Part shown: in pieces, positions 1 to 20,081 of the stretch
Layout of the letters: every line of letters starts with the position of its first letter
Position numbering within the stretch: the stretch's first letter is position 1
From: Protoeuglena noctilucae
Lineage: Eukaryota
DNA length: 31,759 bases
Assembly (NCBI GenBank): GCA_958009085.1
Contig: OY253674.1
Location: forward strand, 1,240,001-1,271,759
Direction: 5' to 3'
Notes under the pieces: generated by a model
What the model was told of the DNA's origin: nothing
The model's database searches: none
Seen by the model: only the letters and a program-made list of their open reading frames with translations
Made by a program: the position numbers and the translations under genes

Positions 1-2215
1 CAGAGTGGGTGCGACGGAGATGACGGGCACTGGCACTTGCACTGCCACTCTCACCCGCACCCGCACCTGCACCCTCACTGCCACCACCCTCGCCACCACC
101 ACCGCCACTCTCACCAACCCCCCCCTTTGCCAGGCACACCTCGGACCCGGTCACCCTGGCGATGAGGGGCCCTGGGTTGCTGGGAGTGCCCCAGAACACA
201 TCGCACTGCACGGCACGCGTGGGGTATGCAACAGTCACGCATCTATCAACAGATGAGCGCAACTGTGACCCCATGCAGCGGCATACGGTCACCCCACTCC
301 CTCACTTCCCCACTCCCTCACTCACCACATGCAGTGGCATGCTGTCAAACCCACTCCACTCATCCACTCCCACTCACCACATGTAGTGGCATGTTGTCCA
401 CTCCCACGAAAGGCGCCGCCCAGGCATCCAACGCAGACAGCACCCGCCCCAGCCACCCATGCCGCTGTCGGGACTCATCACCACCCTCCCCCTTCACCCG
501 ACCACCACCACCCTCTGCCCCTCCCCGCACATCCTCTCCCCTCCCCAACCCCTCACTCCCCTCCGCCACTCCCCGCACACCCTCTCCCCTCCCCACCCCC
601 TCACCCCCCTCTGCACCCCCCCGCACATCCCCACTCTCCCTCTCCACACCCCCGCTCGGCAGCTCTCTCGCTCCCCACGTCAACTCCCCCCCCGCATGCC
701 ACGCCGCCCCCTCCGCCTCCCCCAGCCTCCTCCGCACCGCATGCGCCACCACCCGCCCCGCCAGCTCCAACTCCAAACATTCCCTCGTATCCCTCATGTT
801 GCTGGCATTATCCCTTTTACTTCTCACATCTCTGGCGTCCCCCACGCACCCCGGCAGCGAGGCCTCCCGCACCGCCCCCAGCGTCGTGCGCCCTGACACC
901 AGCTGCCAGAGATCGCCAGCAGTGGGGGAGGTGCGCGACTCCGCCTCGAAACCATCTGAGAGAGATGGGGGAGAGATGGGATGGGTGATATGCACAGACT
1001 GGGTGCGCAGGGGCGAAGCGTGATGTGGGAAGGGGTGGGGAGGGGCGCACGATGGCACATGGGCAGAGGGGCGAGTGAGGACAGCACTGCTCGGCTAATC
1101 AAGCGCAGTAATGGGGTCCAATGGTAGGAAGCGTCGCGTCTCACCTGGCAGCTCCCCCGCTTTCAGGTGCGATATGTCTGGCCCCAGGTATGCGTGGCGC
1201 ATGGCACCCCACAGCGCAGCCACCAGGGCATCGGGGAGAAGGGCGCCGATGACACTGCGACGGGGGGTGGGTGGATGACGACTGGCGACAATGATGGACA
1301 AAAATAGACAGATGACCCCACGCAGTCAAAACTGGTCAACCAGCAGTGCCCTCACAGCCCCCCCCGCACTCACCCCACGTCCCTCGCATCTTTCACAAAC
1401 CCCACGTCATTCCACCGCACTGCCCGGGCTGGGCTCCTGGGCCCCTCCACGCCCGCCCCCTTCTCCGCTCGCCAACCCCGCGCCCAGTCCAGCAACGTCG
1501 CCTCCTGGGCCCCCTGCGACGTTGAAACCAAGCATGGTATTCATACATCACAGCAAATAGCCCTGCCTGTCCGTATGCTACCGCATTTCTACTCCAAAGC
1601 GCCCCTCACCTCCGCACGCTCCCGCCGTCGCGCGGCCCATCGGTCCAGGCCATCCAATCCCCATCGCCATGGATGCTCCTCGAATCCCTCCGTGTGCTCC
1701 GTGAATTGGACGGGGCCCCGGGGCCGCCGATACACCCCGGCCGGGCCAAATGCGCGGCCGCGGTGGGGAGGGGCGCGATGAGCCGACCCGGGCCCGGCCG
1801 ACGCCTCGCCCGGCGCACGGTTGTCGCCATGACGTCGTGCGTATCTCCCTCCGATGCCTCCCGGACCGCCCGCGCCGTCCCCTCTGCGCAGGTGCGCGTC
1901 GTAAGCGCGGCGCGACACAGGGCTCCCCAGCACCCGCCGGGCGTCGACGAGGCGCTGGAAGACCTCCCCGCGACTTTCCTCCCACTCCCAGATCTCCGAC
2001 GCCGATCCCGTCGCGTGGCCGTGGTCCGAGCGGCGCTGCAGGTCGGGATGCAGCGCGCGGGCCCTACGACGGAACGCGCGGCTGATCTCCTCGGCGCTCG
2101 CGTCCGACGAGACGCCTAGAAGCTCGTAATGGGTCAGATCGCGCACGGACTGAAGCGAGCGCGGGCGCGCGGACGCTAGGGCGCGCGTAGCAGCCCTCGC
2201 CATGCCCGGCTGCAT
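1..2215 (-). CDS. DnaJ (J-domain) protein, multi-exon, 3' end runs off the window
   Basis: Exon 1 (2215-1610) encodes THYELLGVSSDASAEEISRAFRRRARALHPD...FQRLVDARRVLGSPVSRRAYD, a J-domain with the HPD motif. Phase-consistent GT-AG splicing joins exons 1513-1374, 1254-1145, 955-378 and 205-<1. The C-terminal part has no family I can recognise. Confidence 0.8.
269..398. repeat. Three-copy degenerate direct repeat (~52-56 nt period) spanning an exon end and splice donor
   Basis: cactcaccacatgcagtggcatgctgtc (319-346) vs cactcaccacatgtagtggcatgttgtc (371-398), 26/28 identical. A third, decayed copy catgcagcggcatacggtc lies at 272-290. Confidence 0.8.
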
Positions 2216-2404
2216 GGCTCTGCGACCGCCATGCCAGTCGTCTTCGCGGCGGGGCCTGTGAAAGCGACGTTGCGGAGTCCACGCAGCGCGGAAGGGCGCG
2301 GGGGCGGCGGTGCACCTCTGGCAGCGACATCACGTTTCAATGTTTGGGTCGTGTGCTACAGAGCCTAAGCTCGCAGGCAGCGCACTGAGAAACTCCATCC
2401 TCGC

Positions 2405-2959
2405 TGCAGCCACAGTGAGATTGTCCGTTGTACGATTTCAAGGGCTTCAACTTCGTCGTGGCGTACGGCTCCCCTCACATGTCCCGGTATGTGAAGGGGC
2501 AGTCTCCGCCCACGCCCAACGCGGGATTGCCTCACCTCACGCGCCCCGTAGGGTCTCGGTTGTAGATCTTGTCCTGCTTTACTTTCAACAGCAGAGCAGG
2601 ACGAGATCTACTGCAGAGACCCGACGGGGCGCGTGAGAACGCGAGGCGTGTGTTGCATGGGCGGAGACTCCCCAGCGGGGCCGGGCGCGGGTGCGGGCTG
2701 TGGACGGAGTGGTTTTCATGACGAGCCCTGCAACTTGTCGATGCATCGACGCCTTGCAGATCTCTGGCTGAAAACCACTCCGTCCACGGCCCCGCAGAAA
2801 CCGGGGAGGAGAGACTGCTGTGTGTGTCGACTTGCTATGCACTGCTCCGCAACGGGTCGGCCCGGCGAACCGCGGCACAGGGGTCGCGCACTCTGCGCGC
2901 ACGGGAACCACGACGATTTATTCAGGCGACAGGCTCGGCGTCACTCACTCACGGCTGCA
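2405..2959 (+). ncRNA. Putative large structured ncRNA or pri-miRNA-like locus with two long hairpins
   Basis: Hairpin A: 2501-2512 pairs with 2658-2669 (12 bp perfect) and 2536-2583 pairs with 2590-2637 (~48 bp with a few mismatches). Hairpin B: 2695-2718 pairs with 2769-2792 (24 bp, one G-U). Enclosing stems are 2405-2419/2944-2959, 2453-2461/2908-2916 and 2675-2686/2860-2873. G-U wobbles favour the + strand. No credible protein is encoded here. Confidence 0.6.
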
Positions 2960-3275
2960 CGGGCGGGCCGGATCCAAAGGGGTCACGCCCACCTCAGGAT
3001 CGGCCTCCCCCCGCCAACACCTGCCCGCGCCAGGGCCCAATCGCGCCTCTATGCGCTCCGAGAGAAAGAACAGAGGACGCGGGCACGGAGCCGCAGGGCC
3101 GGCGCGCCGCGGATGGCCGAGCAGGTTGAAAATTGAGGACACGAGGATTTTTGTGTCTACTCTCATGTGGCGATCGTTCAGCTTATTCCTCGCCGAAAGT
3201 GGCTCAGAAACATGGAAAATGTCGGCTCGGGTGCTAGGAAATGAATCAAAACGTTCGGCGCTTGCGCGTCACGCG

Positions 3276-5507
3276 TCAGACCTCCCACATTCCTGCGTCC
3301 ACCCGCAGTCCCGTGTGCCGCGCCCCCTCCTGCCGCAGCACGTACACCTCGCGCCCTGGCCGCAGATCCGTCACCGACACGGCCTCGTCGCCCTCCCCTC
3401 CCTCGGCCGGGCCCACCAGCCTGTTGCAAGACAGGGATGGGCGCGTGAGTGGGACAGATGGGTGGCAGTGACTTGCAGATGGTGGAGTGGCAATGCGACA
3501 TTCAAGCTCATCGCACCCCTCACCGCACCGTCTCTGCCTTCTGCACCACCACCGACACCGCGTCCCCCCCCGCCCCCTCCGCCTCCACCAGCACCATCGG
3601 CCGCCGCTCGATCTTCACCCGCCCCACCGTCGCCTCTCTCACGGGCGCGCCCCCCTCCCCCCGCGGCCCCACCACCGCCACCCGCGCCCCCGCCCTCAGC
3701 TCCGACAGGTACGCCGTGCGATCCCCCGCCGCCAGGCAGTAGGCGTGCACCGCCCCCGCGTTGACCCGGAAGGGCCGCGCGTTGACGTAGCCCTCCGCAT
3801 CCAAGCACTCGGAATGCACCAGGAACAGCGCCCTCGCGAAGTTGCCCACGAGCATCCCCTCCCCCGGCGACAGACGCTCCGTCAGATCCACGCACGCGCG
3901 GTCGCCCACCCCCGCGTCCACCACCCGCGCCACCCGCACCGCCTCTAACATAGCCATTCCCGGCCTCTCGGCGTTGTTAGCGCCACCACCACGCGTGTCG
4001 AGGTCGGCAGAGTCTAAGACCCCCACCCCTGTCGCCTGCCGGGGCGCTTGTGCTTGAGCTTGCGGTGCCGCCCCCCGCACGTGCATCCCCAGTGCGGCCA
4101 TACGCTCGGCCAGCCGCGTCACTTGGCCCGCCTCCTGGGTCCGCAGCACCACGCCGCCCACGCCCACCTCCAGCGCCGTCAACATCACCTCGGCCTCCTG
4201 AAGAGAGGGCAACGGGGACATCCACATGTCACATCAGCATCATTTCGGCCTCTTGAGGAAATGGCGATTGGGACATTCACATGTCACACCGCCACCCCTC
4301 CCCACATGCTGGCAGCAAGTCCCATACCACGTCTTGTGGCAAGCATTGAGTTTGGCCACGCAGCGTGTCTCTCGATGGGCATGCGCCCCCAGTTAGCAAT
4401 TTCTGTAACTGGAGACACGTGCGCATGCGAGAGGCATGCGACGCGGCTGAGCCCAGGACACGCCACAGAGCGGCGTATGGCATTCGATACCCGCATGCAG
4501 CTGCGATGGACCCCATTGCCACGCCCATGCATGCGTTGCCCATCCAATGCCACCCTCCCCTCACCCCCGCGTCCTCGACCGCAAACAGCAGCGCCGCCCT
4601 GGACCCCCTCGTCTGCGCAATGAGGTTCTCTGCCGGGATGATCTGCCAGTCCGTCGCCTCCACCACCAGATGGTAGCCGGGGGGGTGCTGGGGGGGGTAG
4701 GGAGACGGTGGCGATGAGACTTGTTATCGCTAGCTCCGATGCTAAGAGAGATAGATGCGATGATGCTCGCCATCGCCAGCTGCAATGCCACTTTACTCCA
4801 TCCACACTCACTCGCCCCCTCCCCTCACCTTCTTCCCCACCAGTCGGTCAGTCACCCCCCGCAGCTCCCCCGCTCCGCCCACCGACACCCACTCCCCCGT
4901 ACACTCCCACTCCCCCTCGCTCTCCTCGATCCCATCACTGAGAAACGTCACGCAGACGCCCCCCTCGCATCCCGGCAGCTCCGCGTCACCCGGCACGCGC
5001 AGAATGTCAGCGAGGGACGCGCCGGGCCCCACCGTACGCGACGCCAGCACACGCGACGGGCCCCGGGACGCACTACCGCTGTCGACAACGAAGGCGCGGA
5101 CGCCGTTGGCGATCGCGGCGCGGACCACGGCCTCGCTCGTCGTCATGACCCAGACATCCTGCGCGCTTCGTTCACAGGGGCGAAGAGAGGGTCTTGGACA
5201 TGCCAAACGTCTCTAATATGCTGCAGGACAGCTGCGGCAAACCAAGCGTGGCAATCGCTTCGTCTGTGCGTGGGAAACAGCGCACCTTTTCGACGAGCGA
5301 CGCCCGCGCCACTGCGTCGCGCGCCGAGGAACGATGGGCGCGATGGGTGCGCGAGGACGTCGACGGGGGGAACGTCGTCTCGCGGAGACGTGCTCTGGCC
5401 CATGGCGCAGGCGCTGCTCGTAGCCCGCATGGCCCGCATGCGCACGGGGCTCTGCCCCGCGAAGCAAGCGCAGAGGAGCATTGCGTGACCGCCAGTGACC
5501 TCGACAT
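3276..5507 (-). CDS. 3-dehydroquinate synthase II (PF01959 / AroB' type) with a probable plastid transit peptide
   Basis: Exons 5507-5286, 5158-4829, 4687-4565, 4197-3524 and 3420-3276 are all phase-consistent GT-AG. Family motifs: DWQIIPAENLIA, GDRACVD, GEGMLVG, FLVHSE, RPFRVNAGAVHAY, YLSEL, VGRVKIERRP, GARHTG. The N-terminus is S/R/A-rich. Confidence 0.92.
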
Positions 5508-19245: not shown

Positions 19246-19608
19246 GTGAGCGGGGCCCGAAGGGTCACCATCGGCGCCCGCAGCGTCTGCCGCCGTCCGC
19301 CCCTGGGCAGGGCGGCGCCGGGCCTGCGGCCGGGACCCCGCGCGCCGCCGCGCCTCGGGCGTAAATCCGGGCGCGGCGGTGGGTTCCGGCGACGCTGTGC
19401 GCCGGGCGAAAGTCCCCGGGCTCTTTGGTAGAGAGTACCACCCCGCAAGGGGAGGGCCGCCGCCTGCCCCGCCTGGGGCCTCGGTCCCTGCGCCGGGGCG
19501 GCGGCGCAGCTCGCCTTTCTGCCGCCTCACGCGGGCGGCGCCGCTACAGTTATGTGGCCGGTGTGCGAGTGGCACACGAACTCAACGGGGCTCACTCTCG
19601 GTGCTCAC
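19246..19608 (+). ncRNA. RNase MRP RNA
   Basis: CR-I GAAAGTCCCCG (19408-19418) pairs with CR-V AACTCAACGGGGCTCAC (19579-19595) to form P4. P8 hairpin ggta-GAGAG-tacc carries the MRP-diagnostic GARAR loop (19427-19439). P9 is cccc-gcaa-gggg (19441-19452). CR-IV is TACAGTTAT (19545-19553). P1 is gtgagc/gctcac (19246-19251/19603-19608) and P2 is gtcaccatcggc/gccggt..gtggc. Ends are approximate. Confidence 0.92.
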
Positions 19609-20081
19609 GCTCACACTTTCCCTGGGCCCTCCCAGGTTTCGCTTTGGCGCCTGAAATGGCATGGCGGCAAGCGCGGTCGCTCGCACAGGGGGTCCCAGGT
19701 GCGCGTGGTTCTGCTCGGGTTGTCACCGTGCATGCTGTGATTCGGGGCCGCTGCGGGATGACGATGTCAGACCCACAGACCTGTGCTGACGGGCGGGCAG
19801 GTGGCCCGCCCGCTGACTGAGAAAACGTCGTTTCATGCACCACTCCGACCGCTGGCGCCCCGCGGAGCGTGGCGTGGGGTGACGATTGCAGCTGCCGCGG
19901 TGCGCAACGCCCGTCCCTTGTTGCTCCTCCCTTGCAGGCGCATCGGACAGGCGGCGACTTCAGGCTCACTTTGCCGAGATCCAAGCCTCACACCCGTGTC
20001 TGTCGACACGCTCACTCTGGAAGCCCCTTGCTCGCTTCAACACTCCCGCACCGCTACTCGACCCAACCCCTCCCCGTTCCT

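Follow-up and report, generated by a model that had tools for sequence, protein, structure and literature searches.

Two long hairpins, A and B, sit in a spliced minus-strand transcript of Protoeuglena noctilucae, which is either the 3' UTR of the DHQ synthase II gene (DHQS2) or a separate RNA. Both hairpins are real and rare. The explanation favored here, to which about an even chance is given, is that the pair forms a two-hairpin Dicer-like (DCL) substrate of the Chlamydomonas UTR and intron type within a spliced Pol II transcript, where it would yield small RNAs and destabilize its host. An earlier note on this DNA had instead proposed a single nested fold of ~550 nt, with its structure read on the plus strand, and had interpreted it as a two-miRNA cistron or an undescribed RNA.

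The window, meaning the whole 31,759-nt stretch analyzed, is the end of contig C7 in an assembly of 26.3 Mb and 27 contigs, in which TTAGGG-type telomere repeats are present at 13 of the 19 contig starts read. The hairpin region lies between two minus-strand genes, identified as in the earlier note: a DnaJ-domain gene (PF00226), with its first coding exon at 1610-2215 and its ATG at 2215 or 2203, and DHQS2 (PF01959), with its last exon at 3276-3420 and its stop codon at 3276-3278. The closest DHQS2 relatives among the 120 matches listed come from green algae and plants and share 40-52% identity. On these matches, the host is considered a green alga that has no close relative in the sequence collections.

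Hairpin A (2497-2673, 177 nt) combines outer arms at 2497-2515/2655-2673 with inner arms at 2536-2583/2590-2637, the latter in Watson-Crick register at 41 of 48 positions. Hairpin B (2695-2792) has a basal stem at 2695-2718/2769-2792 and an interrupted upper part. A small hairpin at 2471-2499 is marginal (z -2.0 on the plus strand, -3.1 on the minus strand). As structures, these elements and the outer stems described below carry no strand assignment. For the segment 2400-2965, the predicted folding energy is -319.5 kcal/mol on the plus strand (z -11.45) and -312.6 kcal/mol on the minus strand (z -12.20); none of 100 shuffles folds as well, which places the segment outside the shuffled range. 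This stability is due to hairpins A and B, whose z-scores are -16.0 (plus) and -14.4 (minus) for A and -10.1 (plus) and -10.7 (minus) for B. The MFEI is 1.07-1.24 overall and 1.15/1.16 for hairpin A. When 111 segments of 566 nt from across the window are ranked, the hairpin region is fourth, and the three segments above it are 73-77% GC.

All the stems named in the earlier note are present where it had placed them, including the outer stems (left arms 2405-2419 and 2453-2461; right arms 2908-2916 and 2944-2959). The outer stems do not, however, exceed genomic background: among 250 sites drawn at random from the genome with matching geometry, 82% (plus) and 42% (minus) offer two nested helices that equal the best pair in the region. 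The scaffold obtained by swapping A and B for tetraloops is at shuffle level (z -0.02 plus, -1.16 minus), and the remainder of the proposed second arm (2793-2910) is less stable than its shuffles (z +1.8 plus, +0.8 minus). Both right arms of the outer stems lie within a spliced minus-strand intron at 2893-2992. Since this intron takes them, the envelope is out of reach of the spliced RNA. A unitary 550-nt fold is thus not supported, and in the favored reading the outer envelope around A and B is incidental.

An ungapped inverted-repeat scan gives hairpin A a score of 28 and hairpin B a score of 21. In 810 kb of other DNA from the same genome, scores of at least 20 are reached by four hairpins at three loci, with a maximum of 25, and five shuffles of 400 kb never scored above 16. 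Hairpin A is the strongest inverted repeat in the 842 kb scanned. Extrapolation from three loci in 810 kb gives roughly 100 such loci genome-wide, with wide uncertainty. MITE and foldback elements also carry inverted repeats, as the A/B region does. In contrast to such elements, A/B is single copy, has no terminal repeats above background and shows no target-site duplication by eye. The region matched only itself genome-wide at E values up to 10, in a search in which one candidate was scored and which short matches may escape. The mobile-element origin against which the earlier note had set its proposal is accordingly not supported.

Transcription of the locus is documented by assembled contigs from marine metatranscriptomes, of which four runs out of twelve were compared with the region. 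Contigs nearly identical to the region, and covering it in part, were found in three of these four runs, all from one study, and none in the fourth; they contain no sequence variants over the region. The X1 contigs cover 2333-2894 (depth 13.9), 2865-3022 (depth 20, unspliced) and 2993-3286 (depth 11.7). A joint between 2892 and 2993 in X1 (depth 11), with intron ends CT..AC on the forward strand, defines the 100-nt minus-strand GT-AG intron at 2893-2992. X1 thus contains the region in both spliced and unspliced form, and the splice joint was seen in one of the four runs. Neither the gap in coverage at 3287-3550 nor run X9, which gave no contig, was counted as evidence. Depth over the DHQS2 intron (bins 4234-4541) is zero in every run, which argues against DNA carry-over.

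The upstream exon (2993-3286, minus) overlaps the DHQS2 stop and is either DHQS2 3' UTR or the first exon of a separate RNA; the stretch 3120-3275 is richer in A+T, at about 50%. The downstream exon (2333-2892, minus) holds hairpin B, hairpin A and the small hairpin. The X1 contig end at 2333 lies 23 nt past a UGUAA-like word (TGTAG, 2360-2356, minus), a putative poly(A) signal. The simplest host is a DHQS2 3' UTR of ~0.9 kb, the alternative being a separate RNA that starts near 3250. Near 3270 there is a TGACG-type promoter word, but as it shows no enrichment across the genome (39 occurrences against 45.6 expected), it cannot tell a 3' UTR from a separate gene.

Two other identities for the transcript were rejected. 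A 116-codon ORF in the spliced RNA looks non-coding, with a GC3 of 0.67, compared with 0.79-0.88 in the flanking genes, no Pfam match and no Atlas match at 0.9 or above (best 0.84). A DnaJ 5' UTR is ruled against because it would contain nine AUGs ahead of the start codon and fold at about -418 kcal/mol, and because of a step in depth: in X2, contig depth drops from 20 to 3 upstream of ~2231, which suggests that the DnaJ gene has its own start site near this position.

Hairpins of similar appearance occur elsewhere in the genome, in introns whose placement was deduced from reading frames and splice words. A three-hairpin cluster on the plus strand at C19:418188-418830 (L144:8188-8830) is probably located in a 5' intron. 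Its G-U pairs number 8 versus 6, 10 versus 0 and 6 versus 0 on the plus and minus strands, with a strand asymmetry of 11-25 kcal/mol, and it is a cleaner polycistronic miRNA-like candidate than A/B. A lone miRNA-like hairpin on contig C1 (L070:2351-2444) lies in an intron of what we take to be a NOL10-like gene, with G-U pairs at 10 versus 2 in favor of the sense strand. Another lone hairpin of this kind, on C11 (L133:3503-3598), lies in a probable GC-AG intron and is as strand-symmetric as A/B. The C19, C1 and C11 hairpins have no Rfam match at threshold. The genome therefore holds a class of miRNA-like foldbacks, at least some of which are shaped at the RNA level.

The plus strand had been assigned to the hairpins on the grounds that most non-Watson-Crick positions were U-G wobbles on that strand. 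This count was not reproduced: with A, B and the 9-bp stem each taken in ungapped register, there are 12 non-Watson-Crick positions, of which only four are G-T, three are A-C (wobbles on the minus strand) and five are of other kinds. Counted in the MFE folds, G-U pairs number 6 (plus) versus 3 (minus) in A and 2 versus 0 in B, a sum of 8 versus 3, and the argument for the plus strand is weak. The sole evidence of strand is the minus-strand intron at 2893-2992, and the plus-strand assignment is probably wrong. A plus-strand RNA from the hairpin region is possible, as the contigs give strand through the intron only.

The mixture of mismatches (G-T, A-C and purine or pyrimidine clashes at 4, 3 and 5 of 12) also bears on a neutral origin, in which A and B would be functionless relics, left by two local inverted duplications within an intergenic stretch or a long UTR and transcribed only as part of the UTR. 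The folding energies point the same way, being nearly strand-symmetric (plus/minus -129.2/-129.6 kcal/mol for A and -70.1/-67.4 kcal/mol for B), and so does the lack of homologues in the metagenome, viral-contig and prokaryote-genome scans, which hence yielded no covariation. A metagenome scan with the DHQS2 exon returned 25 loci, none of them close (best segment 36-69% identity, mostly prokaryote-like). Exact-pattern scans gave 0 matches in viral contigs and 6 in prokaryote genomes, against about 4 expected by chance for a 19-mer. Relics of this kind are nevertheless quite unlikely, as the two hairpins are spaced 21 nt apart where only about one such locus is found per 270 kb, their arms match nothing else genome-wide, and sister hairpins elsewhere carry a strand-specific G-U excess.

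Searches against known RNA classes were negative for the hairpin region. No Rfam family was matched at threshold, and at E values up to 10 only generic hairpin models appeared, below their cut-offs; one of these is mir-4773, at 39.8 bits against a cut-off of 100. Model and motif searches of the region agreed with the earlier note in finding no features of RNase P, SRP, U3 or telomerase RNA. The conserved regions CR-I and CR-V (P4), which mark RNase P and MRP RNAs, were not found there by motif and Rfam search. Models of SRP, U3 and U6 had no match in the region, while each family was found elsewhere in the genome. The motif words typical of hammerhead, Sm, SECIS, U1 and snR30 elements gave nothing coherent in the region. 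Green-algal telomerase RNAs are defined by their template and a type-3 promoter in the accessible portion of the source (PMC8287931); the longest match to the TTAGGG repeat in 2201-3350 is 6 nt, inside stem A, and more than one repeat is required of a template.

The same intron that removes the outer arms raises a further alternative. The intron at 2893-2992 excludes the hairpins, and a longer one is possible from the sequence, running from the donor at 2992 to an acceptor at 2404 or 2385, although it was not seen in the contigs. A stable ncRNA of ~550 nt, or a box C/D RNA in hairpin B, would then be excised from this long minus-strand intron, hosted in the manner of the SRP RNA and probably the RNase MRP RNA of this genome. 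The donor at 2992 is in use, and the end of the fold adjoins AG acceptors, with a branch-like CTCAC at 2419. When folded within 2250-3150, the outer stems form on the minus strand alone (pairing probability 0.25-0.66, against 0 on the plus strand). The only C-box-like word in 2200-3350 (2718-2724) faces a CTGA, the D-box-like word at 2768-2771, in hairpin B. A box C/D snoRNA would have its boxes in kink-turn register and carry an antisense guide to rRNA or snRNA. The two words in hairpin B, however, are on the plus strand, opposite to the proposed intron, and lie paired within a perfect stem. The contigs, which drop rare forms, cover both sides but link 2993 to neither 2403 nor 2384, and the joint that was observed uses 2893 and removes the outer arms. 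With a scaffold at shuffle level, and with neither an Rfam family, nor RNase P CR-I/CR-V, nor a telomere template in the region, an RNA excised in this way is rather improbable.

Intronic hosting itself is well represented in the genome, which counts in favor of that alternative. All four SRP RNA copies found (C1:808493, C8:66589, C15:856345 and C2:805617) lie in introns of protein genes. Judging by the translations, two of the hosts are beta-tubulin genes, with the SRP RNA in the same intron of both, and the others are a PsbR-like gene and a gene for an acidic ribosomal P2-like protein. The acceptor follows ~20-30 nt after the end of each copy, and none has a T-run terminator. A literature search of incomplete coverage returned no report of intron-encoded SRP RNA in algae, and the intronic SRP RNAs may be a greater surprise in this genome than the hairpins. 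An RNase MRP RNA at 19379-19607 (plus, 57.3 bits), between donor-like and acceptor-like words, is apparently within an intron at 19246-19636 whose host has no obvious coding frame. Upstream of it, in the same host region, the segment 19018-19090 contains a C-box-like word, after which come two CTGA words and the reverse complement of the C-box-like word; the segment is a possible snoRNA, with no Rfam match. The sole U6 match (C12:80512-80614) is not followed by a T run, which is unusual for a Pol III transcript. Nuclear RNase P RNA had no match genome-wide (15 of 893 candidates scored), while MRP RNA is present.

Precursors of algal and plant miRNAs are stem-loops shorter than 300 nt that contain a 21-nt duplex with few mismatches. 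Further criteria are a transcribed precursor, miRNA and miRNA* reads with 2-nt 3' overhangs, a Dicer-like protein and an Argonaute. In a duplex test allowing at most 4 unpaired positions and an asymmetry of at most 3, hairpin A yielded 50 (plus) and 42 (minus) passing 21-mers and hairpin B 13 (plus) and 15 (minus), so that both hairpins have the structure of miRNA duplexes. A Dicer-like gene is present at C5:886-896 kb; it encodes DEAD and Helicase_C domains along with two RNase III stretches, and profile search detected no PAZ domain in it. An intact-looking non-LTR retroelement ORF of ~1600 aa adjoins this gene (C5:886000-896000).

An exon-wise genome search with a loose first filter gave no true match to the Argonaute domains Piwi, PAZ, ArgoL1 or ArgoL2. 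The profile search recovered RNase III pieces of 36 residues and therefore sees short exons; PAZ and ArgoL1 found no match in any control. The one weak Piwi candidate (E 0.41) was rejected as an integrase. An AT-richer stretch at C8:152357-155488, which carries an integrase (PF00665) together with several small ORFs, may be an integrated mobile element. By this sequence search, Argonaute is likely absent from the genome, and of all the results this negative one weighs most heavily against a functioning miRNA locus. A literature search of incomplete coverage found no report of an alga with Dicer but without Argonaute, and the portions available of two sources (PMC7994812; bioRxiv 2022.01.18.476847) do not settle whether Argonaute has been lost in this kind of alga. 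A search of 888 kb, or 3.4% of the genome, gave no near-perfect small-RNA target, a result that is uninformative at this coverage. The proposal of a two-miRNA cistron survives in part: transcription, single-copy status, duplex structure, a Dicer-like gene and sister loci speak for it, while the 550-nt unit and the plus strand are not supported.

In the favored reading, A and B would be two independent long foldbacks within one spliced minus-strand Pol II transcript, either the ~0.9-kb DHQS2 3' UTR or a non-coding RNA running from near the DHQS2 stop to ~2333. The PAZ-less Dicer-like protein would cut the stems into ~21-nt duplexes, as at a pri-miRNA or hairpin-siRNA locus, and this cleavage would destabilize the host RNA, in the way known for DCL3 of Chlamydomonas and its hairpins in UTRs and introns. 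Dicer cleavage, small-RNA output, Argonaute loading and the choice of host transcript are steps that we infer. Besides the negative Argonaute search, the lack of homologues and covariation in the scans and a splice joint seen in one run, two observations count against such a DCL substrate: the near strand symmetry of A and B in energy, unlike the C19 and C1 hairpins, and the mild G-U excess (8 versus 3), which favors the plus strand, opposite to the spliced one.

The closest precedent is found in Chlamydomonas reinhardtii. In the part of the source available (PMC4817775), its DCL3 has no PAZ domain and cleaves 43 or more mRNAs that carry UTR foldbacks; UTR miRNAs are described in 13 mRNAs, UTR siRNA precursors in 26 and foldbacks without small RNAs in 9. 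Within the same limits of that source, A and B resemble the DCL3 foldbacks in being long imperfect hairpins in a spliced Pol II transcript, 3' of a stop codon, and the two genomes are alike in having a Dicer-like protein without detectable PAZ and, for the sister hairpins, intronic positions. They differ from it in occurring in a distant green alga, as a tandem pair, with Argonaute not detected and with small RNAs that are presumed here. Several hairpins within a few hundred bases are also characteristic of polycistronic MIR clusters, known from Drosophila and, in two cases, from Ectocarpus in the text accessible (PMC12026948), but A/B has no sequence relation to these, only generic sub-threshold model matches. 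The stable intron-encoded RNAs of Cyanidioschyzon merolae, as far as the available text describes them (bioRxiv 10.1101/2025.12.01.691491), offer a parallel in being unclassed structured RNAs of a compact algal genome with ncRNA-hosting introns. Unlike these, A and B are exonic in the observed splice form, and an excised species is hypothetical here.

The Chlamydomonas foldbacks without small RNAs also suggest a role in cis only. Cleavage by Dicer would then determine how stable the DHQS2 transcript is or where its 3' end lies, or block read-through into DnaJ, with no Argonaute-loaded product. Comparable cases are Drosha acting on the DGCR8 mRNA and those Chlamydomonas mRNAs whose foldbacks give no small RNAs but whose levels increase in dcl3. 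A Dicer-like gene with no Argonaute found, hairpins that are exonic and downstream of the DHQS2 stop in the minus-strand RNA observed, and the precedent in the portion seen of PMC4817775 all fit such a role. It is unlikely all the same, although worth keeping in view: the other hairpins of the genome are intronic, where decay of an mRNA in cis is not an obvious purpose, the three-hairpin cluster suggests small-RNA production, and Argonaute may have escaped the search.

A broader and distinctly speculative scenario, about as doubtful as the neutral origin, would have the lineage keep Dicer and ~100 RNA-selected long hairpin loci after losing Argonaute. The hairpins would work through Dicer alone, cutting UTRs or freeing intron-born RNAs, in a lineage with intronic SRP RNA, and removal or retention of the 100-nt intron would act as a switch for the long-range pairing that surrounds them. 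If confirmed, the favored reading of A and B as a DCL substrate would show that the Chlamydomonas-type hairpin/DCL system also exists, with precursors in clusters, in a marine green alga only distantly related, a useful but expected result. It would be important only if Argonaute is truly absent, as RNA-selected Dicer substrates would then have been kept without a silencing effector.
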